This document shows, piece by piece, positions 20,104 through 40,769 of a stretch of DNA of 64,000 bases. A program made the translations under genes and the position numbers. This stretch comes from a virus (Duplodnaviria > Caudoviricetes). The notes under the pieces were generated by a model that worked only from the letters and a program-made list of their open reading frames with translations, ran no database searches and was not told where the DNA came from. The stretch is taken from positions 96,001-160,000 of the IMG/VR virus record IMGVR_UViG_3300037424_000485; one strand, given 5' to 3'. Position 1 is the stretch's first letter; each line of letters starts with the position of its first letter.

Positions 20104-20668
20104 AAGCATACATTATATTATAAGGTCTAATAATGGTAGTTATAGCAGTATTGACTTTATCAACATAATTATACGGGTCATGATCAAGACCATATTTCAT
20201 AACAGTTCCAGGCCCTCTATTATATGCCAATACAGCATATCTCCAAGGATCTGGATATTTTCTAAATTTATCTAATAGATATGCAAAATAGTCTGCTGAT
20301 AGTTTTATAGCCCATTCATCCATCAACAACAATCTTATGAATATTTTATTATCTGAATATTTTCTATCATCCTTTCGTATGTTTTTAATAACATATCTAG
20401 CTGTTGAGATTTTCATCTGTGCAGTGCCAAAATATCTATTAGAAAAATTATCATCAGCGGGGCCGTATTTATTAATCCCACATGTACTCTCAACAAATTG
20501 AATAGCTTGTATTGTTTCTGGCCATCCAATTTCATCACCGGCCTGTTTAGCAGTATCTAAAATATACTTTTGTTCTTCTGAAGGTTCCCATCCACCCTCT
20601 CCTAATACAATATTAGGAATAATTATCATTAAGATCAATAATATTATTGTTTTCATCATTAACTCCAT
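20096..20668 (-). CDS. Lytic transglycosylase (SLT/lysozyme-like) with signal peptide
   Basis: AIQFVEST, GTAQMK..TA, AVLAYNRGPG, Y..KV motifs. Confidence 0.8.
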   Translation of the reverse strand: MELMMKTIILLILMIIIPNIVLGEGGWEPSEEQKYILDTAKQAGDEIGWPETIQAIQFVESTCGINKYGPADDNFSNRYFGTAQMKISTARYVIKNIRKDDRKYSDNKIFIRLLLMDEWAIKLSADYFAYLLDKFRKYPDPWRYAVLAYNRGPGTVMKYGLDHDPYNYVDKVNTAITTIIRPYNIMYASN

Positions 20669-20733
20669 TCATTATGCATAAACCCATACCTAAAAATATG
20701 GGTTTATTATTTGGTTATAGATATATTTATAAA

Positions 20734-21036
20734 TTATTGTTGATTTATAACTCCTAAATTATATTCAATCGATTTCTCAATATCATCAACAGTTTCGAGT
20801 ATAGTCCTACAATATCCCATATACCCTTCTTTCTCCAATTCTTTTATTTGTCCAGAAGCTTTAACAGTCTCAATTTTTAGAAGATCTTCAACAATAGAAG
20901 ATATACTAGCTGCCATAATTTCAACATCTTTAACATCCACATCTTTTAATGTGAATTCAACTGTTGGTTTTGTTGATTGGTAGTTTCCAGTATTTATGGT
21001 TATAGTTCTGCCAATTGTAATATCTATTTTACTCAT
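20734..21036 (-). CDS. Hypothetical phage protein
   Basis: TINTGNYQS.K pattern; AGGAG RBS. Confidence 0.6.
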   Translation of the reverse strand: MSKIDITIGRTITINTGNYQSTKPTVEFTLKDVDVKDVEIMAASISSIVEDLLKIETVKASGQIKELEKEGYMGYCRTILETVDDIEKSIEYNLGVINQQ

Positions 21037-21046
21037 TCATTTCTCC

Positions 21047-21957
21047 TTAAAAGAAAATATCAAAGCATTTGCTTTGTGTTAGTATTTTTTCACGATTCTG
21101 AGGCTCTAATAAAAATTTTACCTTACCTACGAAAAACTTCTCAATCTGTTTTCCATAATCCAACTGTAGCCCATTTTCAGTGAATTCTTTAGGCCAATCA
21201 TAATAACTAACCACTGTAATCCCAAAGCGATTTCTTTTAAGATATACTACCTTGGCTTTATCCCCTTCTTTTATTCTTTCATATTTGTTCTGAATGTTAA
21301 ATTCTTTTAATAGCATATGATAATTACAAGCACCCTTGACATGATAAGGGGTTCCTTTTATGGCACAGTCATTCTTAATATACTTGCTCATATTATTAAT
21401 ACCTATATTAGCACTCAATTCTTCTGCTGGTGATGCTTCCATACTAATCTTATACTCATCTACATGTTTTCGTATATCATCGTCAGAATGTCCTTTAAGG
21501 ATCATTCCTAGCAGATGTTTTAATGCTTTGCGAAATATTGATGGGCATTCAGACCTAATAATAACAAGACCTTTTACATCTATCTTATCGCATGGCTTTC
21601 CATCATCATCAACTACATTATAACCATACATTTTCTTTTTAATAAAAAGTGCAGTACGACACACAATTTCTTGTTTAAATCCAATAGAAAAATCATCTCT
21701 TTCAACTATAGAGTTATACGTACCTATCTGAGTATTTTCAAACGCCTCATCTTCTACATTTTTTTCTACGATTTTTGATATTCTTTTAACAAAATCAATT
21801 TTATGAACATCGGGTATTTTATCCCAATGCTGTTTTGTAATTCCTTGATCTAAAAGAAAAGCCTCCACCATTATAAATAAACTATCAGTATCGATCTTCT
21901 CTAAATATAGGCGATATAATCAATCATATCGCCTATATTTCTATTCCTTTTTATCAT
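21047..21957 (-). CDS. gp43: Family B DNA polymerase C-terminal subunit (gp43B); motif C interrupted by an 11-nt gap
   Basis: MIKRNRNIGDMIDYIAYI-TAG-AGAAG-ATC then DTDSLFI...KQE...KKKMY...VKGLVIIRS; removing 11 nt gives DYIAYIDTDSLFI and 900 nt in frame. Confidence 0.85.
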
Positions 21958-21973
21958 ATTATTTTTCCTCTTT

Positions 21974-22159
21974 TTAATAATCCAATGGGACTACATTATA
22001 ATTATCCCCGAAACTATGTGTAACAATATATGTATCACCAGTTTTTACATCATACACCATATGTGGCTTATTGTCACCAAACTTTTCTCTCATATCCTTA
22101 TCAGAAGAACATCCAGATAATAATACACCAAGAATGATTATTAGTATTAGTTTATTCAT
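21974..22159 (-). CDS. Small lipoprotein
   Basis: Lipobox LLSGC after a hydrophobic signal. Confidence 0.6.
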   Translation of the reverse strand: MNKLILIIILGVLLSGCSSDKDMREKFGDNKPHMVYDVKTGDTYIVTHSFGDNYNVVPLDY

Positions 22160-22232
22160 AATATCTACCTTTGTGTTTGTTTATTCTCTATAGTGCCTAT
22201 ATTATCCGGTCTAGTTTTCATTATCTCTCCGC

Positions 22233-22454
22233 TCATCGGCCCGAGTTCCAGCCCTCTACATCATCGCTGTAAACCGCGCTCTCGCCGTCTTCTCTCTCGT
22301 CAGCGTAGTTTTCAAACCGGTTCAGGAGCATGTAACCTTTGCCGCATTTTCTCCGCAGGAGGGAGTTTCTGCCGTCATCGGCAACGCTTTCAAAACCCAT
22401 CTTCTTCCAGTCATCGGTTTTGTTGAGTTCGTTTATAATCTGGTCTTTCGTCAT
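22233..22454 (-). CDS. GC-rich small hypothetical protein, probable cassette cargo
   Basis: Visibly higher GC than the genome; GGAG RBS; own promoter. Confidence 0.6.
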   Translation of the reverse strand: MTKDQIINELNKTDDWKKMGFESVADDGRNSLLRRKCGKGYMLLNRFENYADEREDGESAVYSDDVEGWNSGR

Positions 22455-22506
22455 GTTCGTAGTCTCCGGGTTGGGTGGTGGGCTTATTGCCCCTCTCTAT
22501 GATTTA

Positions 22507-22535
22507 AATATATACCTTATTAAACAAGGAGTCAA
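22507..22535 (-). promoter_or_regulatory. Sigma70-type promoter next to attC site A
   Basis: TTGACT-17 nt-TATATT; upstream GTGAATTAAATAA also occurs at about 17638. Confidence 0.65.
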
Positions 22536-22591
22536 TAGAAAAAAGTATATTCTTTTATTTAATTCACTTTTTTTTCTTCGAAGGTCGGCCA

Positions 22592-22654
22592 GACTAACCA
22601 GCGGGTAAACGCGGAACCGCAAAAAGCGCGGAGCCGGTTAACTCCACGTTGGCC
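22592..22654 (+). mobile_element. attC-like site A (63 bp)
   Basis: GACTAAC-CAGCG-GGTAAAC-GCGGAACCGC...GCGGAGCCG-GTTAAC-TCCAC-GTTGGCC imperfect palindrome with bulges. Confidence 0.65.
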
Positions 22655-22656
22655 CG

Positions 22657-22887
22657 CTAGGCGTACTGCACGCCGATATTAAGATGGCAAATTAAATTAA
22701 AAACCTTCCCACATTCACCGCATGTATGGTCAAAAACGCCATCTGTTTTGCCCCGGCCATCGTCAGTACCCCAAATTGTCACAGAAACATCAACATCATC
22801 AATCTCGACATATTCACCACATCCAGGGCATATAACCTCAATAGGATTTTGAAGCCTGTTCATCTCACCCATAATAATTGTCCTCAT
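22657..22887 (-). CDS. GC-rich Zn-ribbon protein between attC sites A and B (inverted cassette ORF)
   Basis: CPGC and CGEC; bounded by GTTGGCC and GCCCAAC. Confidence 0.6.
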   Translation of the reverse strand: MRTIIMGEMNRLQNPIEVICPGCGEYVEIDDVDVSVTIWGTDDGRGKTDGVFDHTCGECGKVFNLICHLNIGVQYA

Positions 22888-22911
22888 AAATAGTAGTTAA
22901 TCGTTGCCGCT

Positions 22912-23005
22912 GCCCAACAAGTCGCTCCACACGGAACGCGGGAAGCTCCGTTTTTGGTTTATCTGCTACTCCCCGGGCCGCGTCCGGTGAGCTAAAACGG
23001 TGTGT
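22912..23005 (+). mobile_element. attC-like site B (94 bp), outer R box degenerate (GGT instead of GTT)
   Basis: GCCCAAC-AAGTC-GCTC(C)AC-A-CGGA(A)CGCGG...CCGCGTCCG-GTGAGC-TAAAAC-GGTGTGT with two extrahelical bases. Confidence 0.7.
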
Positions 23006-23043
23006 CCTATGTGTTCGTCAGATGTAAAGTAGTACATAATATC

Positions 23044-23304
23044 CTACATAGTGAAAAGTTCAGGTGGAGCTATATCATACAGTGATAATGTGTCTTCTCT
23101 ATACCACCACCCTGTAGTGTCATATGGCGATCTATAGACCTCTCTTAGTATATTATTATCTGTTTGTACTAGATAGCCTCTATCCCTCCTAATACTCTTA
23201 ACCACACCAACTTTACCATTGGCATGTGCTATCATATAATCATTCCAATTAGATACATCCCCTAAATTATTTATAGCTACCCTATCACCAACTTTAAATT
23301 TCAT
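23044..23304 (-). CDS. Small SH3/KOW-like protein with C-terminal IAPPELFTM motif
   Basis: MKFKVGDRV...GKVGVV. Confidence 0.55.
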   Translation of the reverse strand: MKFKVGDRVAINNLGDVSNWNDYMIAHANGKVGVVKSIRRDRGYLVQTDNNILREVYRSPYDTTGWWYREDTLSLYDIAPPELFTM

Positions 23305-23627
23305 ACCATCTCCATATCGAAAAGATTTTCTGGAACTATATTAATAAGTAGTATCTCAAGACCTTTCTCATGTATAACAATATCATGTCCATCTTCAAGA
23401 GACACACCAACAATTTCTTGATATGTGTCATTGGTGTGATATGTGTCATCGGAGTGTGATCTAACATCAACAACAATACCTACCTCTCCATTAGATCCAC
23501 GATATCCAATTTTATAATTATGAAGACCCATCATCTCAGCCATGATTTTACATCCAGTGAATATCATCCATCTATTAATAATCTTGACTTTACATCCAGG
23601 TAGTAACTCTATACCATTAATCTTCAT
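23301..23627 (-). CDS. Hypothetical protein with C-terminal IVPENLFDM motif
   Basis: Overlapping operon. Confidence 0.55.
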   Translation of the reverse strand: MKINGIELLPGCKVKIINRWMIFTGCKIMAEMMGLHNYKIGYRGSNGEVGIVVDVRSHSDDTYHTNDTYQEIVGVSLEDGHDIVIHEKGLEILLINIVPENLFDMEMV

Positions 23628-23943
23628 ATAATAAATCCCGTACTGATTTTATAATATTTCCATCTTGGTTATAATAATTATAATACTCATAATCATCATA
23701 TAAATGCAAGAGAGCTGGACACCTAGCAGACTCACCAAACATCTGTACTATCTGCTCAATTCCCTCTGGTGTATGTCTTACTGTACGATGTTTATACCCA
23801 AGTTTGACATATAGTGCATCCAACCATTGATGTACCTCAGTATAAGGTTTACCAAAAAACTCTATACATCTAGCTTCATGCTCTTCTCTCCACATTATAG
23901 ATAAGGCCCAAATAAGAAAATCATTAAACAGATATGGATACAT
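23617..23943 (-). CDS. His-rich hypothetical protein
   Basis: H...C...FG....VH.WLD, HR..RH..EG, H..DD pattern; the true start is probably internal. Confidence 0.55.
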   Translation of the reverse strand: MYPYLFNDFLIWALSIMWREEHEARCIEFFGKPYTEVHQWLDALYVKLGYKHRTVRHTPEGIEQIVQMFGESARCPALLHLYDDYEYYNYYNQDGNIIKSVRDLLYED

Positions 23944-24278
23944 TGATCTAATGCTAATGTATTCCAGAATTTATCATCTTTTGTATGGAGATTATATTTT
24001 ACATAATCCTCGATATCTTCTCTTTTATAAGCATATTTTTTAAAATATGTCCATAGATACTTATCTTGAATACCATGACATAAAACATAAAGCACGACAA
24101 TCCACTGAGGCATATCAATAAAAAATGCGAACACGGCGAATATGATATATATGATACCCATATGGATACCCATACTCACCCAATCATTAGATTTAGTTTC
24201 GGCTACTTCTCTTGATTGTAAATAAAAATCACTAAAAAAGTGTAGAAATACAGCTACATAAATCATCTGACCACCCAA
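23895..24278 (-). CDS. DUF3307-like membrane protein
   Basis: LHF.SDF.LQ, H..., HG..D, DQ..H motifs. Confidence 0.7.
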   Translation of the reverse strand: MGGQMIYVAVFLHFFSDFYLQSREVAETKSNDWVSMGIHMGIIYIIFAVFAFFIDMPQWIVVLYVLCHGIQDKYLWTYFKKYAYKREDIEDYVKYNLHTKDDKFWNTLALDQCIHICLMIFLFGPYL

Positions 24279-24466
24279 AAAAGTAATACTTATTTATTCT
24301 ACTATAAATTATAGTAAAATCCTCTGTTGTTTTTAATATTACATCATCTATACAGAAATAGCAACAAAAATGATTGCCAATGTGCTCATCACTACTATTT
24401 CTTTTCCAAAGATCATACCAGTCGCAGTATTCGCTATGGGATATTTGGTTTCTATCGCCCATTATT

Positions 24467-24940
24467 TCAAAATATCTTTTTTCCATCAAATAACCCCAAA
24501 TTAACACCCTCAAGCAACAATACCTGTTGTGTTTCATTTAAATATTTAAAGGCTGTCTTGTAGTGTACCCATCTCCATCTATCAATTTCTGGCCTTCTTT
24601 GCTCTGTAATCATACAGTAGAATGTACTATCACAAACAGGTGTTTTTTTAATTATACCATCAAACTCATATGCAAAGGCAACTAGTTGTTTTGGGATGTC
24701 AGAATATTTAGAGCATCCAAGCAAGGATCTCCTATACTTAAAACCACCTCTTATGATATCATCACGAAGGATTCCTGTTTCTTCTGTTACTTCCCTCCAT
24801 GCAGCTCTTAATTCGCTCTCACAGGACTCTTTAATTCCTTTTGGAATGCTCCACATTCTAACTGGTATGCCTGTTGGATGCCCTATTAGAATTTGCTTGT
24901 ATTTGTTTATGAGGAAGATCCCACATGTAGTCTTGATCAT
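24467..24940 (-). CDS. NUDIX hydrolase
   Basis: WSIPKG...ESELRAAWREVTEETG Nudix box; PEID..RW. Confidence 0.9.
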   Translation of the reverse strand: MIKTTCGIFLINKYKQILIGHPTGIPVRMWSIPKGIKESCESELRAAWREVTEETGILRDDIIRGGFKYRRSLLGCSKYSDIPKQLVAFAYEFDGIIKKTPVCDSTFYCMITEQRRPEIDRWRWVHYKTAFKYLNETQQVLLLEGVNLGLFDGKKIF

Positions 24941-25173
24941 TTAAGTCTCCACCCATATTTACCATCCTCTGATAAAACTAGTACAAGTGCAAGACCAACT
25001 ATTCCACACAAACCACTACAGAAAGCTATGACTAAAGACACGAAAATATCATATTTATACTGTTTGTCTTTAAGACTCTCGTATTCTCCTTGCCAGAATG
25101 CGAACATAAGACCATATGATATAAAAGACACAATAGGTATAGTAATTAAATATAATATAATTAGATATTTCAT
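24937..25173 (-). CDS. Small two-TM membrane protein
   Basis: Two hydrophobic stretches. Confidence 0.55.
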   Translation of the reverse strand: MKYLIILYLITIPIVSFISYGLMFAFWQGEYESLKDKQYKYDIFVSLVIAFCSGLCGIVGLALVLVLSEDGKYGWRLK

Positions 25174-25544
25174 TCTGAAATATCCTCATCTATATGTTTA
25201 TTTAAATCTTTAAAACTATGGAAAGATTCTGGATTAAAAGAATCAGCAAGTTCTGTTTTATGTAATGGATTTTTCTCATATAGCTCTGATATATTTGAGT
25301 ATCTTTCTAGAGCATACATATATATCATATCCATATAGGAATCATCTCTTAGCTTAAAAATGGTTCTCTGATATACAATATGTCCTAAGAAACTCCACCA
25401 TGCTAACATCCACCCAGCGGCTTTATATATATCACCACTGCTTGAATATACATACACGCCAATTACAGCAGACATTAAAGATAATATAATAGTAAAAATT
25501 TCTACCCCGCCTGTGTAAATATTAAACTTGTTTAACAGATTCAT
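25170..25544 (-). CDS. Membrane protein
   Basis: Two N-terminal TM segments. Confidence 0.55.
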   Translation of the reverse strand: MNLLNKFNIYTGGVEIFTIILSLMSAVIGVYVYSSSGDIYKAAGWMLAWWSFLGHIVYQRTIFKLRDDSYMDMIYMYALERYSNISELYEKNPLHKTELADSFNPESFHSFKDLNKHIDEDISE

Positions 25545-25603
25545 AATGTTTTATCTCATTGATGATATTTAATAACTCTTCATTAGGATTATTTAACAGC
25601 TTG

Positions 25604-25924
25604 TTAAACACCGTATTTAGCCTTGAGCTTTTCCAACTGACAAAGCTCTTGATTCTCAATAAATTTTCGGTGGTTATCTTCGTTATTCAGCCGTGCGGCT
25701 TCCTCGGCATCGGTTTCCAACCGCTTATAGCTTATTTTCACCTCAAACTGACTGCCATCGTAATAGGTTGACGTACTGCAATCTATATTTATGGTCGCCT
25801 TGTACTCATCAGGCACAAGGGCAAATTTATCAGACCACCATTTCAAAAACTCTTCCGGGCTACTCGGCAGGTCATAGGCACAAGACTCGGCTTCAAAAAC
25901 AATAACTTTAATTTCCTTTTTCAT
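25604..25924 (-). CDS. Hypothetical protein carried by the inserted cassette
   Basis: GGAGG RBS; stop lies at the GTTAAAC junction; GC-richer. Confidence 0.65.
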   Translation of the reverse strand: MKKEIKVIVFEAESCAYDLPSSPEEFLKWWSDKFALVPDEYKATINIDCSTSTYYDGSQFEVKISYKRLETDAEEAARLNNEDNHRKFIENQELCQLEKLKAKYGV

Positions 25925-25979
25925 AACTTCCTCCGTACATATGTGTTTATCCAGACATCAACTGAGCTTGGTGTTAGCA
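25921..25979 (+). mobile_element. Degenerate attC-like site closing the inserted cassette
   Basis: ...CTGAGC-TTGGT-GTTAGCA right arm; left arm TCATAAC-TT-CCTCCGT eroded into the ORF RBS. Confidence 0.5.
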
Positions 25980-26069
25980 TATCTCTGACCATTAAGAATG
26001 GTATGTCTACACATGATGTTATAGCCTCTGCCATAATACCATAAAATTTTCTAATAATCAATAACTTTA

Positions 26070-26077
26070 TATAAATA
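26070..26077 (+). promoter_or_regulatory. T4-type late promoter upstream of the HNH gene, followed by a hairpin (26094-26126)
   Basis: TATAAATA. Confidence 0.55.
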
Positions 26078-26163
26078 ATATTATATAAAAACAAACCCAC
26101 TAACCGTTGGTAGCGGATAATGGGTTCTAATCATAACATTTACTTATAAGGAAGTAAACAAAT

Positions 26164-26895
26164 ATGACTATATTTATTTATACACAAAAAACCAAGAAAT
26201 GTATTCAATGTAAAGAAATAAAATCTATAGATAATTTTAACAAAAGAATGACTGGAAAATATAGAGGTCAGTGTAGAATTTGTCAAAATAAAGCGAATAG
26301 AGATAGATATCACAATCACAGTAAAAACACATTGAAAAAATCCTCATTAGACTACTATAATAACAATAAAAAACATTACATGGCGGTACATAAAATATAT
26401 AGGACATCACTTGCATCATATGAAACATATGCACATCAGCTAACAGTAGAAGAAGATCCAATATTATCTGATGATGGTGTTTCTCTTGAGGTTAGATGTA
26501 AATATTGCGGTAAATATTTTAAGCCTACTAATAAAGAGGTATCATGTAGAGTTAGTGTAATAAAAGGACTATCAATAGGTGAATTAAGTCTTTATTGTTC
26601 TGATAATTGTAAAAAATCATGTGGGACATATAGACAAAGAAAAAATCCAAAAGGTTTTAAAATATGTACATCGAGAGAAGTACAGCCAGAACTTAGGAAA
26701 TTGGTTCTTGAAAGAGATAATTATCAATGTCAGTCATGTGATAATATTGATATCAAGCCATTACACTGTCATCACTACGAAGGTATTGAGATCAACCCTA
26801 TTGAAAGTGCTGATATTGATAATTGTATTACATTATGTAAAAAATGTCACAATGCTGTTCATAAGCATTGTGACATGAGAAGAAAAAAATGTTAA
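26164..26895 (+). CDS. HNH homing endonuclease, antisense, abutting the gp43A stop; paralog of 10323..11177
   Basis: Shares YETYAHQLT.EE, LEVRCKYCGKYFKPT, TSREVQP.LRKLVLERD, EGIEINPIESADIDNCITLCK. Confidence 0.85.
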   Translation: MTIFIYTQKTKKCIQCKEIKSIDNFNKRMTGKYRGQCRICQNKANRDRYHNHSKNTLKKSSLDYYNNNKKHYMAVHKIYRTSLASYETYAHQLTVEEDPILSDDGVSLEVRCKYCGKYFKPTNKEVSCRVSVIKGLSIGELSLYCSDNCKKSCGTYRQRKNPKGFKICTSREVQPELRKLVLERDNYQCQSCDNIDIKPLHCHHYEGIEINPIESADIDNCITLCKKCHNAVHKHCDMRRKKC

Positions 26896-28752
26896 TTATT
26901 TATCATATATCTTAATCTCATTGATGATATTTAATAACTCTTCATTAGGATTATTTAACAGCTTGTTAGCATATCTCTGACCATCAAGAATGGTATGCCT
27001 ACCACATGATGTTATAGCCTCTGCCATGTTAATATTAAAATATCTACTATATGGTACTGCCATAATACCATAGATAGAGTTAATGAGAATCTTAAAAGCC
27101 CATTGTAGATCATATTTTTGTTTTGCTTTATCTAATATTTTCTTCTTAGATTTCCCATCTTTTATAGATAACGATTTTTCGTAAAGAAGTGACATTTTGT
27201 TCTTCTCTTCTTTACGCTTAATAAATACCATTTTCTCTATTGTAGGTATAACACCTCTTTTCCCATTTTTAAACATACTACCACATGGTGCTATAGATAA
27301 CAATTTCTTTTCTATAGATTTATTAAATATATCTAATTTTTGACCATCGATATATTGAACCATCCCATCTTTTAATAAATAAAAAGGTGGAAATTTTTTA
27401 TTCCTTGCATGATCAACTACTATATCATAAAATGGCCTAGTTTCATCGTCTTTATTATGAATCCCTATACCAGCATTATAATCTACTACATGGTTTTCAT
27501 TAAAACCAATAATTCTACCATAATATGTTTCATTTGATATATTTAATATAATAATATGACTTGGGTATGAGCTTGTTATATCAAGATCCACTACCCAAGG
27601 ATGCAGTCCTTTATATGGTTCTTTAACAAAAGCGGCTGGAAACCATTCTTTATCTCCCCCCATCAATCTAGGAGCTGCTAGATTATTTCTACGATAGTAT
27701 ACTAACATAAGACCTTCAACAAGACCAACAGTTGTGTTATACATATCCATAGGGACACGACAAAGAAGTGTGAGTGATTGTATTAACGATAAATAACCGC
27801 ACTTCTTCTCTATATTTTGTATTAGAAGAGCATCGTTTATGTTATATTCACAATACAGCTGCCAATTTTTCATATACAACTCTTGTAGTGTGCCGTATTC
27901 TCCATAGTCTATCTTACCACCAAGATTTTCTACTTCAGCAACATGGTCTAGTTTATTACTTTCAAGGTTGTTTGTGGTATACCATCTATAAACACTCATA
28001 TAATCGAGTAGTGTTACACCAGCAATATTAATATGCTGAACCCCAACTCTATCAACATAAGAATTTACATTATTAATGGGCGATAACTTCTTATAAAGCT
28101 TGGTATCATCCCCAAATAATACTTTGGTGCGATTTATGATATAAGGGAGATCGAAACCCCCTCTGACTTTTGCTTTTCTATCATCACAATAAAACCATCC
28201 GGTTACAACATCACACATATTTGTGTGTTTCCAGTTAAAATATTGTGTCAGTAGGTCATATTCATCTTTACAGTGATGATAAGTGAGATTTTCTATACCT
28301 TTGTCATTAACAAAAGGATGCAGTCCAAATGATTGGATGCCTCTGTTATGAGCTATGGTAATAATTGTGATAGGCCATTTAGCCTCGTCTGGTTTTGGAA
28401 ACTCGTCAGCACTATGAACTTCTATATCTTCAAAATGAATGACAAGATGCGGCACTTCCATATCATCATCAGATATACCGCTATATCTTTCAGATAAAAA
28501 TTGGATAACAGGGTTAACTTCGTTCTCATAACATTGTTTATTTTTATCTATAAAAGACTTATATTGGGCGTAATTACTAAATGATTTCCTTCCTACTGAA
28601 ACTCCATCAATAGTTTTAACATCTTCATCTTCATAGTGTTTTAAAAAAACAAAAGGTGAAAAATCTATACAATCATAGAATCTTTCACCTTTTATCGACT
28701 CCCATAAATGGAGTCTTGACTGTCTGGTATCATAATGTGCATTTGTAAACAT
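26896..28752 (-). CDS. gp43: Family B DNA polymerase N-terminal subunit (gp43A: exonuclease, motifs A and B)
   Basis: EDIEV, FDLPYI.NR, YN..D exonuclease motifs; DLDITSSYPS (A); KILINSIYG (B); ends before motif C. Confidence 0.93.
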   Translation of the reverse strand: MFTNAHYDTRQSRLHLWESIKGERFYDCIDFSPFVFLKHYEDEDVKTIDGVSVGRKSFSNYAQYKSFIDKNKQCYENEVNPVIQFLSERYSGISDDDMEVPHLVIHFEDIEVHSADEFPKPDEAKWPITIITIAHNRGIQSFGLHPFVNDKGIENLTYHHCKDEYDLLTQYFNWKHTNMCDVVTGWFYCDDRKAKVRGGFDLPYIINRTKVLFGDDTKLYKKLSPINNVNSYVDRVGVQHINIAGVTLLDYMSVYRWYTTNNLESNKLDHVAEVENLGGKIDYGEYGTLQELYMKNWQLYCEYNINDALLIQNIEKKCGYLSLIQSLTLLCRVPMDMYNTTVGLVEGLMLVYYRRNNLAAPRLMGGDKEWFPAAFVKEPYKGLHPWVVDLDITSSYPSHIIILNISNETYYGRIIGFNENHVVDYNAGIGIHNKDDETRPFYDIVVDHARNKKFPPFYLLKDGMVQYIDGQKLDIFNKSIEKKLLSIAPCGSMFKNGKRGVIPTIEKMVFIKRKEEKNKMSLLYEKSLSIKDGKSKKKILDKAKQKYDLQWAFKILINSIYGIMAVPYSRYFNINMAEAITSCGRHTILDGQRYANKLLNNPNEELLNIINEIKIYDK

Positions 28753-28867
28753 TTATAACATCTCCTTGTAAAGGGATAGTATAACATTATACATAATAGA
28801 TGTAAATTATCATATCTTAAATAAATCTGATGGTAATATACCTTTTTTACCTAGACTTATAAATCCC

Positions 28868-29107
28868 TTATTTTCTGATCAGTATCAGACCAATAATTTT
28901 ACTATATAGATCTATAATTTCTCTCTGATTTTTGATAATTCTCTCATCCATCTCTGTATTTTGATCTGATATATGATGTGACCATATAATATACAATGCA
29001 AATATACAAAGAAATGAAGCACTATCACCTTTAAGGGCATATGAAACACCTAATAAAAACAGTATGAGGCATGTAATAATATATACCAACCTAATAAAAT
29101 TTTTCAT
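28868..29107 (-). CDS. Small membrane protein
   Basis: Two hydrophobic segments. Confidence 0.5.
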   Translation of the reverse strand: MKNFIRLVYIITCLILFLLGVSYALKGDSASFLCIFALYIIWSHHISDQNTEMDERIIKNQREIIDLYSKIIGLILIRK

Positions 29108-34086: not shown

Positions 34087-34161
34087 TGGTATCCCTACCA
34101 AGAATCGAACTTGGATCACAGCCTTATAAGGACTACGCACTAACCGTTGTGCTATAGGGAT
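34087..34161 (-). tRNA. tRNA-Ile(UAU)
   Basis: Cloverleaf, loop CT-TAT-AA, T arm CCAAG-TTCGATT-CTTGG, encoded CCA. Confidence 0.85.
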
Positions 34162-34225
34162 ATTAAGTTGAATGGATCATATATGACCCTTAACACTATG
34201 TTAGTGGTTTTTATATGAACTAAAA

Positions 34226-34304
34226 TGGTAGGGGCAAAGGGGGTCGAACCCTCACTGGATGGATTTTAAATCCACTATCTCTGCCACAATTGGATTATAC
34301 CCCC
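34226..34304 (-). tRNA. tRNA-Leu(UAA) with short variable region
   Basis: GTGGA-TTTAAAA-TCCAT anticodon arm, GAGGG-TTCGACC-CCCTT T arm, CCA. Confidence 0.75.
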
Positions 34305-34312
34305 ATATTATT

Positions 34313-34606
34313 TTACAGCTTTGAAGCTGTCTTTAATGTGCGTGTCCTAAAAAACCCATCAAATTCAGGTACTTCCAATACAAGCAATCTAGCATATCTA
34401 CTAGTGTAGTTATTATTCAATTTAAAACCATCTTCACTAATAGTTTCAAAACTAATATGCCATCTAACCCTTTCAAATATTGCCTTTGCAGAGTATGTAT
34501 CAAAACCTCTTCTTTTTACTTCTTCTGCAAATCGTTTGAATGCTTTAAAAACAATAGGATTGTTTTTATGATATTCCCAAAATTTAGCATCAATCACATC
34601 CGACAT
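34313..34606 (-). CDS. Conserved-looking small protein
   Basis: F..YH..NP.V...F, YSAKAIFERVRWH, FKLNNN....YARL pattern. Confidence 0.7.
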   Translation of the reverse strand: MSDVIDAKFWEYHKNNPIVFKAFKRFAEEVKRRGFDTYSAKAIFERVRWHISFETISEDGFKLNNNYTSRYARLLVLEVPEFDGFFRTRTLKTASKL

Positions 34607-34632
34607 ATTTTCCTCATCTGTTATTGTTTTAA

Positions 34633-34707
34633 TGGTGCGCCTACTAGGAATCGAACCTAGATAGTCTATTTAGAAGACAGATGCACTATCCATTGTACTA
34701 TAGACGC
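34633..34707 (-). tRNA. tRNA-Arg(UCU)
   Basis: Cloverleaf, CT-TCT-AA, CTAGG-TTCGATT-CCTAG, CCA. Confidence 0.9.
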
Positions 34708-34716
34708 ATATAATTT

Positions 34717-34795
34717 TGAGCACCAGAAGGTAATCGAAACTTCGTATTCTGTATGTAAAACAGACATTCTTCCATTGAACTAAGGGAGCATATAC
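34717..34795 (-). pseudogene. Degenerate tRNA-Val(UAC)
   Basis: Intact anticodon arm TCTGT-TTTACAT-ACAGA; acceptor stem and T arm mismatched; no CCA. Confidence 0.5.
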
Positions 34796-34994
34796 TACTT
34801 ATCTGTTTTGGATTTGAACCAAAACCCCCACGTTGCGGATTTACGCTTACCATAATTAAGTCAGAATCGAACTGACAACTACCCAAGACATGGTGTACTA
34901 ACCAATTATACGACCAGAATATTTATTTTATTATACCTCTTATAAAACAGCCAGTATACCAAAAGCTAAGAACCATAATACCCCAACTTTCTGT

Positions 34995-35112
34995 TTGAGA
35001 GGATGCTAGGATATCCTCAAAGCCCATCGGGTTACGGCAAATGACACCGGGAGACTTCAGTTCTGTCTTGATTAAAGTGAGTGAACTAAGCGTTTCCTAC
35101 AATGCTCACTAT
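34995..35112 (-). ncRNA. Candidate pseudoknotted structured RNA
   Basis: GTGAG/CTCAC, AGCATT/AACGCT, AGAC/GTCT, TTAGTTC/GAACTGA loop pairing, TTTGAGGAT/ATCC-TC-TCAAA. Confidence 0.4.
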
Positions 35113-35116
35113 ATTT

Positions 35117-35192
35117 TGGAAGCGGGTATCGGAACTGCCCCGATCTTATACTTGGTTATGAGCCAAGGAAGACACTATGCCTACCACCCGCA
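35117..35192 (-). tRNA. tRNA-Met(CAU), initiator-like, atypical T loop
   Basis: CTTGG-CTCATAA-CCAAG; TGCGGGT/ACCCGCT with 1:72 mismatch; CCA. Confidence 0.7.
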
Positions 35193-35445
35193 ATACCTTC
35201 TTATTTATCTACAATATCTTCAAGAGGTTTGTAACATTCATAACATACCATAACTACCTTGGATGCGTCAAGCTGCTTTTGAATATCTTTTTCTTCATCA
35301 GAAGACATACTAAGATCGATATCTTTACCACATGAATAGCACTTCATTTTACACACCCCATAGATTCATCATTGCCAACAGTTCAAAATGAACCATCTAC
35401 CCTAATTAAAATATATATTAATCCTTTCATATCATGATATTAAAA

Positions 35446-35524
35446 TGGAGCGGATAGGAGGTAACGATCCCCTTGTGTATGGTTGGAAACCACATGTCCC
35501 ACCTAGGAACTCAACTCTATCCGC
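35446..35524 (-). tRNA. tRNA-Gly(UCC), atypical T loop
   Basis: GCGGATA/TATCCGC acceptor, TT-TCC-AA, CCA. Confidence 0.75.
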
Positions 35525-35527
35525 GCA

Positions 35528-35758
35528 TTATTCATCTACAGTAAAAAACTCACAGCAAGGATATTTTCTCCCCTGCTCATCAAATGGTTCTGTTCCGTCT
35601 TCTTCTTGATTACAGGAACAACCCCTTGGCACACAATAATCACAATAGTAATCATTATGTTGTATACCGCCATAACTTGGCATATATAACCAAGTTCCTT
35701 TATTACCACAATTACAATACCCTACAAGCTCACCAGTAGCTATTTCCATACCTGCCAT
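35528..35758 (-). CDS. Cys-rich small protein
   Basis: CNCG, YCDYCVPRGCSC, PCCE. Confidence 0.6.
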   Translation of the reverse strand: MAGMEIATGELVGYCNCGNKGTWLYMPSYGGIQHNDYYCDYCVPRGCSCNQEEDGTEPFDEQGRKYPCCEFFTVDE

Positions 35759-35774
35759 ACAATAACCTTATAAG

Positions 35775-35980
35775 ATATTAAAACGCGCCCAACTCATGTT
35801 AATTATACAGTCGGTATGCCTACCAAAGACTGATCCGCTATACATTTAGGGAGCAGGGTACAGCAATGAGCTAGATCAAATTTAAGGGGATTTTCACCCC
35901 CACTCTCTTTACATAGGCTTACAGATGGTTATGCATCCCCATTACTTCCCTATGCCGTGATCTAAGAGTAAGACCATGTT
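35775..35980 (-). ncRNA. Candidate multi-domain structured RNA directly 3' of tRNA-Asp
   Basis: TAGATCA/TGATCTA, CATAGG/CCTATG, GGGG/CCCC, AGCTCAT/ATGAGTT, GCTGTAC/GTATAGC, CAGTC/GACTG, GGTA/TACC helices. Confidence 0.5.
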
Positions 35981-35981
35981 T

Positions 35982-36056
35982 TGGCGACCTAGAAGGGATG
36001 TGCGCCCTCACTGTACACGCTGACAACGTGCTGCACTACTATTATGCTACTAGGCC
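35982..36056 (-). tRNA. tRNA-Asp(GUC), atypical T loop
   Basis: GGCCTAG/CTAGGTC, GCACG-TTGTCAG-CGTGT, G73, CCA. Confidence 0.8.
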
Positions 36057-36064
36057 ATATTCTT

Positions 36065-36745
36065 TTATACTTTAGATATCATCAGTTCTGCTTTTTCAAT
36101 AACAGCATTAACAACATCATATGCAGCATTATATTTAATACTATTCTTACGTCCAGCCTGTTTTGCCAGAATTTCCAGCATAATAGATCGTCCGTTTCCA
36201 TAGGGAAGTTTACCTTCCCTTAATCCTTTTGCTACTGAGGAACGAAAACCTCCATTCCCATCTTCAAGTGTATCAGCGATAGACCCCAACAGAGAAATAA
36301 CGGGAGCTAATGCTTCTTGTTTGATCTTCTGATCATCAGCCCATTTCTTCTCAGTAAGCTCATAGTCAGTCAGGCCATCATTTTTTTCTCTCTGAGCTTG
36401 TAACTTTTCTTCACGTTCTTTATTACGCTTCTCTTCACGAAGCTTTCTATCTCTAGCAAGCTTTATTTCATGCACAACACTGGTAAGACCATCATCACCA
36501 GATTTCTTAACACACTCAGATCCAACGGTAAAGAGCTTTCCATTGGCATCTTTAATAATATAATGAATACTCAAAGCAGTATAACAATACTTACATGAAC
36601 CAACGGTAAAGGGAAGATTTTTAAGCATTTCATTCCAGTTTTCTGGATAATTAGCCATCCATTCTCTTGAAGGCATTTCCCAAATCCCATTAACTTTAAA
36701 GGGTGCTTTGCCAAGTCCTTCTACTTCCCATTTATGAATGCTCAT
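36065..36745 (-). CDS. Conserved-looking hypothetical phage protein with Zn motif
   Basis: GLGKAPF, SCKYC, VGSECV. Confidence 0.7.
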   Translation of the reverse strand: MSIHKWEVEGLGKAPFKVNGIWEMPSREWMANYPENWNEMLKNLPFTVGSCKYCYTALSIHYIIKDANGKLFTVGSECVKKSGDDGLTSVVHEIKLARDRKLREEKRNKEREEKLQAQREKNDGLTDYELTEKKWADDQKIKQEALAPVISLLGSIADTLEDGNGGFRSSVAKGLREGKLPYGNGRSIMLEILAKQAGRKNSIKYNAAYDVVNAVIEKAELMISKV

Positions 36746-36828
36746 ATCATAACCTCTGGTTAATTTTGATTATGATATATATTACAACTTTTCTTTAACC
36801 TTGTCAAGAAAATAATATTAATTAATTT

Positions 36829-36903
36829 TGGCATACCGTAAAGGTGACGCTCCCTTGTTTTCTGGTTTGGAATAAGATGTTCTACTGTTGAACTAACGAT
36901 CTG
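36829..36903 (-). pseudogene. Degenerate tRNA-Trp(CCA)
   Basis: TT-CCA-AA loop but mismatched anticodon and acceptor stems; ends CCA. Confidence 0.45.
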
Positions 36904-36911
36904 TACATTTT

Positions 36912-36985
36912 TGGTAGTGGTAAGTGGAATCGAACCACTATCTCAACCTTATCAGGATTGCCCTTTACCGTTAAGGCATACCACT
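36912..36985 (-). tRNA. tRNA-Ile(GAU)
   Basis: AGTGGTA/TACCACT, CT-GAT-AA, TTCGATT, CCA. Confidence 0.88.
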
Positions 36986-36995
36986 ATTTAATTTT

Positions 36996-37081
36996 TGGTG
37001 GGCCAGGTAGGATTCGAACCTACACACCATCGAAGATAAGAGCTTCTAAGACTCCCGTGTCTACCGTTACACCACTGGCCC
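36996..37081 (-). tRNA. tRNA-Leu(UAG)
   Basis: CT-TAG-AA, long variable arm, GTAGG-TTCGAAT-CCTAC, CCA. Confidence 0.88.
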
Positions 37082-37130
37082 ATAATTATTTCATATCCCA
37101 CGTGGGATAAACCGCCATATTTTATTAAAA

Positions 37131-37291
37131 GATTGAACAGGCAGGAGTCGAACCTGCATATCAGGATTACGTTAGGCTGTTACCTGAAAAGTGGTTTGGC
37201 CCATGAGCCTAGAAGATGTCGTTTCCGTTTCATCCCCATCCATATTGGTTTGCCCCACACTCCCCTATACCAGTTCGGGTACAATTCAATC
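37131..37291 (-). ncRNA. tRNA-like RNA 1 with greatly extended central arm (161 nt)
   Basis: GATTGAAT/GTTCAATC closing stem, TACC/GGTA D-like hairpin, TCAGG/CCTGA variable-like arm, GCAGG-TTCGACT-CCTGC T arm. Confidence 0.55.
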
Positions 37292-37456
37292 TTTATTTCT
37301 TTTATCTTATCCATAACCTACGGACAATGTTTCTTCCAATCCATTTATTCATACTACGTTTGAATATAGGAATTAATGACCCTTTCATTAGAGATCTAAC
37401 AATAGCTCTAATGTCATTGTTTATAATATTTAGTTTAAAAAGAGTCATTTTATTCC

Positions 37457-37660
37457 TTATGCCTCATGGTAAATTTCTAGTTTCCGTTGGATAGTTTCGT
37501 AAGACTCAGAACAGTAAAAAGGCTCATCTGAACCAGCTACAAAAACGGAACACTTTTCAACATCTAGCTCATGGATGGCAACTATATAGGATGTTAAAAT
37601 GGATAATTTCTTGCCATTATGGTTTGTAAATAGTTGTTTCTGCATAACAATACACTCCAT
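37457..37660 (-). CDS. Small hypothetical protein
   Basis: Co-oriented ORF. Confidence 0.5.
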   Translation of the reverse strand: MECIVMQKQLFTNHNGKKLSILTSYIVAIHELDVEKCSVFVAGSDEPFYCSESYETIQRKLEIYHEA

Positions 37661-37746
37661 ATCCCTTTACCAATTTGGACAATATTAAATCAATTAACAC
37701 TATCTATGCACTGTAACATAACCTATGTTTAAAAGCAATAGTTATG

Positions 37747-38820
37747 TTACAGATTTATATATTTATCAAAGAACCATTTCCTACCCTTATTAGAGATAGC
37801 ACTTGTGACATCTTTAACAATAAGGCCACTAGCAATTAGAGTATCTACCTCTTCTTTCATTACATCTGTAACAACCCATTTCAGAAACTTACCCGTATTG
37901 GATACATCAGGAGTAATGTTATTGGCTTCAAATATATCTCTTATCCCCTGCTCAAGCCTGTTCTCTGTTACTGCGTAATCAACAAACTCTTTAACGGATG
38001 CCAATTTCTCAGGATCGATAGGAGCGAGGCACTTTACCTTAGATCCTGAATGCTTTTCGCCCTTAACTTTAAAACGAAACATATTGCCATTGATATTAGA
38101 AGACCAAACTGCACCCTCACCAATAATAGAACCATTTTCCGAGGTGGCCCCTAACTTTTTAGCAACAGGACATTCTCTTTCTATCTCATTGGTGATATCA
38201 ATTAACTCATTCTGAGATAATTTGGGATCGTTAAGATCTACCTCTATATTATATGTCCCAAAATAATCAATATGGAACATTCTGATATCATGGTATTTCT
38301 CTACATAAAAATCAAACCAATTTGTTTCTTTTTCATTCTCATCAAGTGGGTTAATTGTATGTTTAACACCAAAGATAACAAACATCTTTTCTAATTGGGA
38401 TACACCAACACCACCTGTAATGCCTTTTCCACACCATTCGCCATATATAGAAACAACACCTTCAGTAAGATCATACGCTTTAACGAGCAGGCTGAACAAT
38501 TCTTTAAAAACAACCTTGTTTTTCTCAACGTAACATGCAAAGCCTTTGTTATCATCGGGAATAGTTATAATCCTTTCTCTGGATTGTACCCACATATCAC
38601 CAGTGGTAATATCAAAACATACCCCTGCATTTGTGCCATGGATTTTTACTCTACCTGTGAAATTAATTACAGGGAGTATTTTGTTGTAATCATATATGAC
38701 TTTTCCTTTATCATCCTTGCCATTATATCTAAGGTGATCTACAAGACCCCTTACAGCAGACCCATACACACTTATGGATGGAAATTTAATACAATTCATT
38801 ACAATACCTCGTCTATACAA
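37747..38820 (-). CDS. ATP-dependent RNA ligase, Rnl2-like
   Basis: Motif I KIHGTN, IYGEWCG, F.IF.V, GEGAVW, FKVKG.K. Confidence 0.82.
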   Translation of the reverse strand: MYRRGIVMNCIKFPSISVYGSAVRGLVDHLRYNGKDDKGKVIYDYNKILPVINFTGRVKIHGTNAGVCFDITTGDMWVQSRERIITIPDDNKGFACYVEKNKVVFKELFSLLVKAYDLTEGVVSIYGEWCGKGITGGVGVSQLEKMFVIFGVKHTINPLDENEKETNWFDFYVEKYHDIRMFHIDYFGTYNIEVDLNDPKLSQNELIDITNEIERECPVAKKLGATSENGSIIGEGAVWSSNINGNMFRFKVKGEKHSGSKVKCLAPIDPEKLASVKEFVDYAVTENRLEQGIRDIFEANNITPDVSNTGKFLKWVVTDVMKEEVDTLIASGLIVKDVTSAISNKGRKWFFDKYINL

Positions 38821-39011
38821 TTATGGCTCATGTCATCTTGATGCCAAGCTCTACATTTTGAACATTTTATGCATCTACCAACCGCAACATCCATTTGCTT
38901 ATTATATTTTACAGATAATCCTATATATATCGCAAATAGTATGAATAAAATAGATACTGCCCATACTATAATACCTGTCACTGTACAGATGTCGGTTAGA
39001 ATTGTCAACAT
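38799..39011 (-). CDS. Small membrane-anchored protein
   Basis: N-terminal TM plus CxxCxxC. Confidence 0.45.
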   Translation of the reverse strand: MLTILTDICTVTGIIVWAVSILFILFAIYIGLSVKYNKQMDVAVGRCIKCSKCRAWHQDDMSHNCIDEVL

Positions 39012-39019
39012 TTAATTAC

Positions 39020-39235
39020 CTATTTTACAAGTTTCTTACCATCAACAGCCAGGATATCTACATTGCCTGTATAGGTATCAATTTCTACATCAAATTTTAC
39101 TTCATATAATGCATACGAGAATTCTCTTTTTACATCATTTGAGAGCGAAAGACCATATTCGTCTTCAATACTATTAATAAAACTATAATTCTCATCTTTA
39201 CTGCTATGACAATACATAACTGATTTAATTTTCAT
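39020..39235 (-). CDS. Small hypothetical protein
   Basis: Co-oriented ORF. Confidence 0.55.
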   Translation of the reverse strand: MKIKSVMYCHSSKDENYSFINSIEDEYGLSLSNDVKREFSYALYEVKFDVEIDTYTGNVDILAVDGKKLVK

Positions 39236-39328
39236 TTCGAATTCACATTTTCCTTAATTAACATTTAGCCGATCTTAATAGATCGTTACCAACATACGCT
39301 ACGTGGAAGCAGTTAATTATTATATGTT

Positions 39329-39400
39329 TCGGAATGAGAGGGGTCGAACCTCTGATCTCTAGTTCCCAAAACTAGCGGCATACCACTTGCCTACACCCCG
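39329..39400 (-). tRNA. tRNA-Pro(UGG), CCA not encoded
   Basis: CGGGGTG/CATTCCG, CTAGT-TTTGGGA-ACTAG, AGAGG-TTCGACC-CCTCT. Confidence 0.85.
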
Positions 39401-39409
39401 GTATAATTT

Positions 39410-39748
39410 TTACCAGTAGAACCAACCAGCATCTTTAATCCATTTATCAAATGAATAACCATCATAATCCATATGACGTAAGACACGTGAAGTCTCTACT
39501 TTATCTTTTGCACGTCTTTCACGATTTAACATCCGTGTATAGGACTTTGGCGCATGGCCATCCCATCCATAACCACTTTTAGTTTCTCTATGGTACTTTG
39601 AAACAGTGTATTTATCATCTCTAATTGAACAATTTCTTGAACAATGAATACCAAAACACCGATCATTAACACATTGCTCTATGCGATAACAATATGTTTC
39701 TAAAATTTGGTCGTTAGTGACCTTTTTTCTTCTGTATGTTCTTGACAT
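39410..39748 (-). CDS. Basic hypothetical protein
   Basis: MSRTYRR start; AGGAG RBS. Confidence 0.6.
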   Translation of the reverse strand: MSRTYRRKKVTNDQILETYCYRIEQCVNDRCFGIHCSRNCSIRDDKYTVSKYHRETKSGYGWDGHAPKSYTRMLNRERRAKDKVETSRVLRHMDYDGYSFDKWIKDAGWFYW

Positions 39749-39839
39749 TTTGAATCTCCTATATATGTATAATTACATATTCGAGTATCAAAATTATTAT
39801 AAATTGTTTTCATTATATTTTTCCTTACATTTTAAAAAT

Positions 39840-39913
39840 TGGGAGGCCCGGATGGTTACGCTCCATCGTTGATCGGTTAAAAGCCGAATATTCTACTATT
39901 AAATTACGAACCC
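39840..39913 (-). tRNA. tRNA-Lys(UUU), atypical T loop
   Basis: TCGG-CTTTTAA-CCGA, GATGG-AGCGTAA-CCATC, CCA. Confidence 0.75.
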
Positions 39914-40189
39914 ATACATTTCTTACTAGCATGGATTCATAATTCATCCATACTTTATTATTTACCTTGACCTCTTGACTTCTTTTTCTTAGCACTCTTG
40001 CTCTTGAGGTTGGTATTTTCACTATTACCGATTGAAGTTTTCTTCTTACGGCTAATATCTGATTTTTTTGTTGTTGATGCTGTCTTCGTCTTTGCCATTT
40101 TAATTCCCTTATTATAACGTTAAATTAATAGTATATTTTACTTCTGACTTTGTGTCAACTTATATTTACCATATATATAATATACCACA

Positions 40190-40500
40190 CTGTTAGCCTT
40201 CGCTATTGAGCAGGGTATCAGCTTCATCCCGCTCGTCAACCGACAAATGGCTGTAATGGTTCCAGCCGGAGTAGGTATTAAACCAATGACACATCCAGGT
40301 TTTCCCTTGGCACCGCATACAGGATCTTGCATCAACTCCGTCACAGGTCGGACAGCCTTTTTCCAGATATGGAATACAACTATAATTTCTTAGCTACTTT
40401 ATCAACACTTCTCAGGAACCACCCTGTCAGTTTATATCAATTTTGCCAACGGTAACTTACTAGATTCAACTGGTTAGGTGTCCTCTCTCAGTAACCTTAA
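40190..40500 (-). ncRNA. Candidate GC-rich structured RNA (about 300 nt)
   Basis: CCGAC/GTCGG, GGAGT/ACTCC, GGCTG/CAGCC, GAGC/GCTC, TAGC-GAAG-GCTA helices. Confidence 0.4.
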
Positions 40501-40597
40501 ATTTGTGAATAGGGTTGGAGTCTAACCAACTAACCTAATTACGGATTTAGGTAAATCTACATGTTATCCTAAGGTTCATGTAATCACTATATTCTTT

Positions 40598-40684
40598 TGG
40601 AAGAAGATGGAGGTATCGCGCCCCTACGTTTTACCGTACCCTAGGGTTCAAGCCTAGTTTGTAATAACTTTTACGGCACCTTCC
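40598..40684 (-). tRNA. tRNA-Ser(UGA)
   Basis: CTAGG-CTTGAAC-CCTAG, long variable arm, CCA; atypical T loop. Confidence 0.75.
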
Positions 40685-40769
40685 TAACAATCAATTAAAG
40701 GACACGAATATTATCTACCCTTCGTTATTTAAGATTAGTCGGTTGGCAGACTAATCTCCTAAAAACTTC

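Follow-up and report, generated by a model that had tools for sequence, protein, structure and literature searches.

Natural programmed bypassing is, to our knowledge, restricted to very few systems, namely the T4 gene 60 family, the yeast mitochondrial byps and the phiHau3 candidate, and the rules of bypassing that we know of were derived almost wholly from one 50-nt case; short stop-hops are otherwise known to us from synthetic constructs. The bypass of T4 gene 60 is reportedly carried on the MobA homing-endonuclease element (Huang 1988; Bonocora 2011; Manning & Atkins), and the terminase gene of phiHau3 is said to be bypassed as well. In the MobA/gene 60 system, the bypass allows foreign DNA to sit in a conserved region with the protein unaltered, and the bypassed insert shields the phage against additional nicking (bioRxiv 10.1101/2022.08.31.505936). 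The upstream mRNA of gene 60 re-folds behind the sliding ribosome (PMC7026636), and published gene 60 homologues are all located within topoisomerase genes. An upstream refolding hairpin stimulates forward slippage of 70S ribosomes at CUU-UGA, and attenuates -1 frameshifting (PMC6321510).

In the terminase gene of Streptomyces phage phiHau3, blocks of 10 nt are bypassed, and a 5' stem-loop has been proposed (Smith 2013; Antonov et al. 2023, PMC10732093). Synthetic stop-hops in E. coli (Weiss, Dunn, Atkins & Gesteland 1987, as cited in PMC10732093 and PMC5009743) are, in these citing accounts, of low efficiency, found in artificial constructs and without dedicated stimulators. The byp elements of Magnusiomyces capitatus mitochondria (Lang 2014, as summarized in PMC7026636) have gaps of 27-55 nt with a stem-loop inside the gap, are translated by mitochondrial ribosomes, and occur in many genes per genome. 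The gp43 polymerase of Aeromonas phages 25 and 44RR is split (43A/43B) into two chains that co-purify and show activity; the summary of this work in PMC2988022 (Petrov, Ratnayaka & Karam 2010) mentions neither a frame break nor a bypass. Our literature search turned up no description of bypassing in PolB or gp43.

The frame break described in this study was found in a stretch of 64,000 nt (referred to as the window; positions 96,001-160,000) of a 204-kb IMG/VR virus record, IMGVR_UViG_3300037424_000485 (32% G+C; estimated completeness of 85%), from an uncultured T4-like phage. The gp43B site would work like gene 60 and phiHau3, yet belongs to neither family, because the gene, take-off codon and gap length differ, there is no stem-loop in the gap, and the conserved 5' hairpin contains the take-off codon.

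Results

Anatomy of the frame break in gp43B

The original prediction had described a mini-ORF, a TAG, an 11-nt gap and resumption at DTDS on the minus strand, and each was found at its position. The mini-ORF, ORF1 of gp43B (21901-21957; ATG at 21957-21955), consists of 18 codons and TAG, and a Shine-Dalgarno (SD)-like GAGG (21967-21970) is located 9 nt 5' of its ATG. The translation, MIKRNRNIGDMIDYIAYI, is made up of a basic leader, NIGD (codons of the 5' arm of a hairpin) and the motif-C β-strand, DYIAYI, followed directly by TAG (21901-21903); these final six residues were identical to the consensus of uninterrupted homologues. The candidate take-off codon is ATT (Ile; 21904-21906). The coding gap of 11 nt, TAGAGAAGATC (21893-21903; TAG, AGAAG and ATC), is proposed to be untranslated, and its last triplet, ATC (21893-21895), is the candidate landing triplet. 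Coding resumes at the first GAT of GAT ACT GAT AGT (DTDS; 21881-21892). ORF2 (21047-21892; 281 codons from the first Asp of DTDS to the stop) encodes the rest of the palm and the thumb, and its translation opens DTDSLFIMVEAF (DTDSLFI). All of these elements are on the minus strand.

The perfect 15-bp hairpin that had been reported to end on the first base of the stop was confirmed at 21940-21926/21917-21903, also on the minus strand: a 5' arm of 15 nt, AAATATAGGCGATAT (21926-21940), a loop of 8 nt (21918-21925) and a 3' arm of 15 nt, ATATCGCCTATATTT (21903-21917), which encodes (Y)IAYI, with the T of TAG as the last paired base. The phage does encode the tRNA-Ile(GAU) attributed to it (36912-36985, minus strand), which reads both the take-off AUU and landing AUC. 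The tRNA cluster of the window (34090-42844, minus strand), in which Rfam found 11 tRNAs and ARAGORN eight, includes tRNA-Ile(GAU) and tRNA-Ile(UAU), and three hits in it were from Rfam only (35985-36056, 39843-39913 and 34719-34789).

The 11-nt insert was present in a second assembly, a 14.4-kb Logan contig (depth of 27) that probably derives from the source sample of the window: zero differences from the window were observed at 21700-22100. Another contig (run X2) stops at 21890 and was uninformative. Among the runs listed as containing the stretch, none was an RNA run. Since independent assemblies of relatives (see below) carried the same type of break, and the re-assembly matched, an assembly error was excluded for this class of break. 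A pseudogene was also ruled out, by the conservation of the break and the agreement of independent assemblies.

Split polymerase and its neighbourhood

gp43A (26896-28752, minus strand; 618 aa) comprises the N-terminal, exonuclease and fingers regions of a split, T4-type PolB; it terminates approximately 10-30 residues short of motif C, and its predicted lack of this motif was thus correct. Motif C and the thumb are in the second ORF, gp43B, as in split T4-type PolB (gp43A and gp43B), and PF00136 matched only these two ORFs in the record, at 13-202 and 266-438. In line with the original prediction, no intact motif-C gene was found elsewhere in the 204-kb record, nor any PolA, DnaE, second gp43B or other replicative polymerase. 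Split gp43 is the sole DNA polymerase of the record.

A region of 4.9 kb separates gp43A from gp43B, and contains an HNH-type ORF, small ORFs including a NUDIX gene, and a dead duplicate of the 3' end of gp43A. The HNH-type ORF (26164-26895, plus strand; 243 aa) abuts the stop of gp43A and is likely a homing endonuclease: the Pfam match was weak (18 bits, below the cut-off), and the C-terminal motif was visible. The dead duplicate (25550-26056, minus strand) is divided into a piece at 26056-25972 (87% identity over 86 nt to the 3' end of gp43A) and another at 25606-25550 (98% over 57 nt), the latter of which encodes NKLLNNPNEELLNIINEIKHYE. An insert of approximately 365 nt between the pieces contains an ORF (25604-25924, minus strand), and the empty and filled forms of one insertion site seem to coexist in one genome. 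The items between the polymerase halves, including this scar, indicate mobile-element activity where the gene is split. The NUDIX hydrolase ORF is at 24467-24940 (minus strand), and a DUF6915 ORF (23617-23943, minus strand) is also inside the 4.9-kb insert.

gp43B family and conservation of the break

Homologues of gp43B were sought among 5.8 billion proteins, which yielded approximately 60 stand-alone gp43B homologues of roughly 290 aa. Most of them start with M-x(2-20)-DY[IV]xY[IGV]-DTDSLF, and three uninterrupted homologues read DYIAYIDTDSLFI exactly. When the gap of the window is skipped, the family sequence is therefore restored to the residue (DYIAYIDTDSLFI), and the proper motif C foreseen for the skipped product was the one found in uninterrupted relatives; with a -1 shift, LEKI would instead separate the invariant Tyr-Ile from DTDS. 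The N-termini of some homologues were unusual, with MTIDTDS... or a start past DTDS. The interrupted set was assembled from the DNA of these proteins, 80 viral loci and two pattern scans; among viral contigs, a scan with a single protein found no relatives, whereas a scan with an alignment did.

The break was conserved in relatives, as had been anticipated: metagenomic, independent assemblies contained 23 distinct interrupted gp43B contexts from approximately 20 lineages, which, given one cassette origin (see below), are therefore not fully independent for features inherited from the cassette. The same break was present in contigs of different samples (L003/L004, L087/L088, L081/L085 and others). 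In all contexts, SD and ATG precede a mini-ORF of 17-28 codons that ends with ...D-Y-[IV]-x-Y-I and a stop, and ORF2 of the interrupted genes has no SD or start of its own. The stop is mostly UGA, usually as UGA-C, and UAG and UAA also occur. After the gap, GAY ACN GAY (DTD) follows, and ORF2 was intact (277-283 aa) wherever the contig permitted. The gap from the take-off AUU to GAY was 8 nt in 11 contexts, 9 nt in three, 10 nt in four and 11 nt in five. Gaps were thus not restricted to whole codons: ORF1 and ORF2 were in frame in the 9-nt contexts, and the lengths overall spanned all three frame relations.

The take-off was UAY-AUU in 23 of the 23 contexts, although this invariance was partly built in by the scan pattern, which fixed CTACATTT (CTAYATTT) and a stop; six cases found via truncated proteins, and hence unselected by the pattern, had the same take-off context with ...Y-I before the stop. 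The last gap triplet was AUU (9), AUA (4), AUC (1), GUU (3), ACU (2), AGU (1) or CUU (1), with at most one mismatch from AUU in every case, and never AUG, GUG or UUG. The match between take-off and landing codons was approximate: the pair is AUU/AUC in the window, and AUH was the landing triplet in 14 of the 21 triplets, but GUU, ACU, AGU and CUU, each one mismatch from AUU, also occupy this position. SD-like runs (AGGAG, GGAG, GGAAG and GAGAAG) were confined to 10- and 11-nt gaps. If translated, the gap residues would be non-conservative: E/K/Q in 9-nt gaps, and GV versus KS in 10-nt gaps. Leaders were homologous across the gp43B tree (M-[IT]-x-[KR]..N-V-G-D), the NVGD part being dictated by the hairpin arm.

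Inteins occur at the same motif in relatives. In P0067, DTDS is followed immediately by a full intein; P0065 has an apparent C-terminal piece of a split intein, with SIYLYV after it; and L120 (929-979) has a stop-gap (TGACAAGGCTT) plus an intein-like insert after DTDS. In L006, a T4 RnlA-type RNA ligase gene (1120-2232) is approximately 2 kb upstream of the interrupted gp43B, probably as a coincidence of T4-like gene order.

Conservation and covariation of the hairpin

A hairpin of 11-17 bp was present in all interrupted genes, with the end of ORF1 as the 3' arm. The mean MFE of the 75 nt upstream of DTDS was -21.8 kcal/mol in interrupted genes (-24.7 to -18.9, n=15) versus -5.9 kcal/mol in split uninterrupted genes (n=27, best of -10.2) and -9.9 kcal/mol in unsplit genes (n=49). 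The hairpin was limited to interrupted genes, with a weak version in one uninterrupted gene, L007 (MKKGDKDISNKDYIAYI-DTDS): an A/U-rich hairpin (680-755; -10.2 kcal/mol) at the cassette position. L007 may be a cassette that lost the gap by precise deletion.

Stem arms were aligned from the stem base (A3) in 20 distinct rows. In 12 anchored pairs, 98.3% of the cells were paired versus 36-54% when the 3' partner was slid by 1-3 columns. The covariation expected for a conserved hairpin was detected. Compensatory, double-sided changes occurred in four pairs, one position showing CG, GC, AU and UA; there were 19 doubly changed cells versus 5.1 in shuffles, and the covariation score (0.356 versus 0.191) was reached by 0 of 500 shuffles. 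The variable residue x of DY[IV]xYI (A, T, L, I, S or V) co-changed with the opposite arm, and therefore the pairing, not the leader peptide, is conserved.

A downstream structure that might act as a barrier to forward slippage was sought, and interrupted and other genes were alike in this respect; a stem-loop of the take-off type was absent from these 8-11-nt gaps. Two signals of T4 gene 60 are therefore absent here. A genome-wide scan (204 kb) for stop-adjacent hairpins detected no second cassette, and was too permissive, with 160 AT-rich matches. A look-alike hairpin at genome position 80216 was rejected; it is inside an intact ORF.

Phylogenetic distribution

In a maximum-likelihood tree of 71 gp43B sequences, 12 rows of which were interrupted, the interrupted state underwent at least seven state changes across well-supported branches, and interrupted rows adjoined unsplit genes (L005/L089; L086) or split uninterrupted ones. 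An endonuclease gene was located just upstream in L003 and the window (HNH) and in L005 (GIY-YIG), and a GIY-YIG fragment in L092; the upstream neighbour in L056 was a possible restriction-endonuclease-like ORF, and no upstream endonuclease neighbour was found in L081, L087 or L089. The leaders of L003 and L005 overlap the endonuclease ORF in a different reading frame, an arrangement also described for the MobA element. Because it is scattered across the gp43B tree, often beside HNH/GIY-YIG genes, the interrupted state looks like a mobile cassette; an adjacent endonuclease gene, a patchy distribution on the tree and an imported flank unlike the parental one are features of homing-endonuclease cassettes, and all were seen here. 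Megablast and blastn searches with the locus and with the cassette gave no match in cultured phages.

Discussion

From the anatomy of the break, its conservation, the covariation of the hairpin and the phylogenetic scatter, we infer that gp43B is made by a programmed translational hop of 8-11 nt, a variant of the T4 gene 60 type with a short gap and a 5' hairpin; we give this a probability of roughly 0.65. The ribosome would initiate at the ATG of the mini-ORF, translate the leader and the β-strand DYIAYI, and pause with peptidyl-tRNA-Ile on AUU and the stop codon in the A site. This codon is UGA-C in most relatives, a poorly terminating stop context. Instead of termination, the mRNA would slip forward by 11 nt (8-11 nt in relatives), tRNA-Ile would re-pair with an AUU-like triplet (AUC in the window phage), and decoding would restart at GAY, giving ...DYIAYI-DTDSLFI..., a normal motif C. 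The upstream hairpin may drive or ratchet this slippage as it re-zips at the rear of the ribosome: when AUU occupies the P site, the entire 3' arm would be inside the ribosome and the 5' arm already out, and each re-formed base pair would need the mRNA 1 nt further forward. The SD-like runs of 10- and 11-nt gaps might, more speculatively, aid placement, as does the gap SD in gene 60.

The occurrence of all three frame relations and all three stops, together with the joining of Y-I to D-T-D-S, argues for one frame-independent mechanism, bypassing. Two frames with a junction equal to the family consensus, a stop after the take-off codon and a free frame relation are what bypassing entails, and all were observed here. 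Because the gaps measure 8, 9, 10 or 11 nt, a frame-independent hop is favoured over a -1 shift. The comparative evidence thus supported the bypass interpretation originally put forward. On the other hand, some of the landing triplets (GUU, ACU, AGU and CUU) are not cognate for tRNA-Ile, and the AUH landing triplets double as weak start codons, both of which count against a hop.

It is on these start codons that the first alternative draws. Termination-reinitiation is frequent in phages, and split gp43 already functions as two chains (PMC2988022); the polymerase might be in three pieces, in which ORF1 releases an 18-aa peptide that provides the DYIAYI strand non-covalently and re-initiation makes gp43B from DTDS, either at the AUH/GUU triplet or at a UUG overlapping AUU-UGA. 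AUU, AUA and AUC (14 of the 21 triplets) are weak start codons, and in UGA lineages with 8- and 11-nt gaps, the stop-overlapping UUG is in frame with DTDS and is chosen by gene callers. However, AUG, GUG or UUG was the last gap triplet in 0 lineages, and GUU, ACU, AGU and CUU are not start codons, such that a start codon is missing in one-third of lineages. When the gap is 9 or 10 nt, the overlapping UUG is not in frame, and there is no such UUG where the stop is UAG or UAA. Moreover, all lineages are without an SD at a usable distance (the SD-like runs of 10-11-nt gaps abut the triplet), and the docking of a six-residue strand from a free 18-mer beside the catalytic aspartates would be unprecedented. 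We regard a three-piece polymerase as unlikely.

Ordinary recoding, in which the gap is translated by a +1 or -1/+2 shift at AUU-stop or by in-frame readthrough, would add 2-4 residues. AUU-UGA-C is similar to the RF2 site, CUU-UGA-C, alternative frames are open across the gap, and an upstream hairpin stimulates +1 shifts in 70S systems; the same study nevertheless found that such a hairpin attenuates -1 frameshifting (PMC6321510). Three different mechanisms would be needed among close relatives with one conserved signal, there is no slippery X XXY YYZ heptamer, tRNA-Ile cannot re-pair at -1 or +1, and the inserted, non-conservative residues would displace the invariant Tyr two residues before DTD. 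A typical frameshift site also differs from this one in its structure, which is here upstream, with no downstream one specific to interrupted genes. Recoding of this kind is decidedly improbable. The gap may otherwise be removed or absent at the level of nucleic acids, through a micro-intron, RNA processing or minority gap-less DNA, or the polymerase gene may be inactive. Introns and inteins favour phage polymerase genes, relatives carry inteins at DTDS, and minority variants may be masked in contigs; however, Rfam found no intron or ribozyme at 20500-29000 (E<=1), consistent splice-site bases are lacking in the 8-11-nt gaps, approximately 20 lineages carry the break as a fixed feature with ORF2 intact and conserved, and this is the sole polymerase in the record. 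These points leave little room for such explanations, to which we give a very low probability.

Under the hop reading, the leader, hairpin and gap would form one cassette that arrived when homing-endonuclease traffic split the gene. The 8-11-nt gap interrupts the DNA for Y-I-D-T-D-S, a natural homing-endonuclease target, and probably breaks this target in the conserved DTDS-coding DNA with the protein unchanged, an anti-nicking role suggested by analogy with MobA/gene 60. The original prediction proposed that the hop gates DNA replication; protection from endonucleases may be an equally good reason for the gap. The broader proposal of a widespread mobile family of hop cassettes in uncultured T4-like phages, in which a re-zipping hairpin with the P-site codon would drag the mRNA by 8-11 nt and the gap would serve as anti-homing immunity, is more tentative, and we place it slightly short of an even chance.

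As in T4 gene 60/MobA, endonuclease traffic has split an essential replication gene in a T4-like phage, and the second piece opens with a new leader plus an imported version of the host sequence that it replaced. Here too, a stop after the take-off codon is followed by a putatively untranslated gap, the distribution is patchy and horizontal, and conserved target DNA can be protected by the gap while the protein stays the same. In spite of these similarities, the features of the gene 60/MobA family (topoisomerase gene, GGA take-off codon and 20-50-nt gap with a take-off stem-loop) were absent from gp43B. The site is in PolB, not topoisomerase, and is not homologous; the gap is 8-11 nt versus 50 nt in gene 60 (20 nt in the Aeromonas clade), and the take-off codon is AUU versus GGA. 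Unlike gene 60, gp43B has no stem-loop in the gap, no downstream barrier and a leader of merely 17-28 residues. The upstream hairpin of gp43B, which holds the take-off codon, is its best-conserved element, whereas the 5' stem-loop of gene 60 is not conserved.

phiHau3 shares with gp43B a very short gap (approximately 10 nt), an essential phage gene, a proposed 5' stem-loop and an SD-like element. Bypassing over frameshifting was shown for phiHau3 by a junction peptide in E. coli. The A-site trigger in phiHau3 is a rare UUA codon, with a regulatory rationale in the host cell cycle, and that in gp43B would be a stop codon; the handful of known phiHau3-type genes have no link to gene splitting or homing endonucleases. 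The synthetic stop-hops, as the citing papers describe them, resemble the proposed mechanism in that peptidyl-tRNA leaves a codon beside a stop and re-pairs a few nucleotides downstream, independent of the frame. Unlike them, the gp43B site is natural and conserved, lies in an essential gene and has a candidate stimulator that co-varies. The byp elements, in the summary cited above, are likewise mobile untranslated inserts in coding sequences that are skipped via matched take-off and landing codons, and the Aeromonas phages 25 and 44RR, according to the same account of their split gp43, also carry T4-type PolB as two genes with inserted DNA between them, which includes a seg-type endonuclease in phage 25.

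The system is minimal (a leader of 18 codons, a single hairpin, a stop and a gap of 8-11 nt), and its approximately 20 natural variants make upstream mRNA refolding, stop context, gap length and landing match directly testable. An essential polymerase is truncated by gene callers in many metagenomic phages, as 'MTIDTDS...' or with a start past DTDS. The link among homing endonucleases, gene splitting and recoding would be extended from topoisomerase to a replicative polymerase. If the broader proposal of a mobile family is true, these phages would carry a previously undescribed and first natural family of stop-hops, a 5' hairpin alone, without a gap stem-loop, would be enough to programme efficient bypassing, and the gap would make the best-conserved DNA of the polymerase gene immune to homing.
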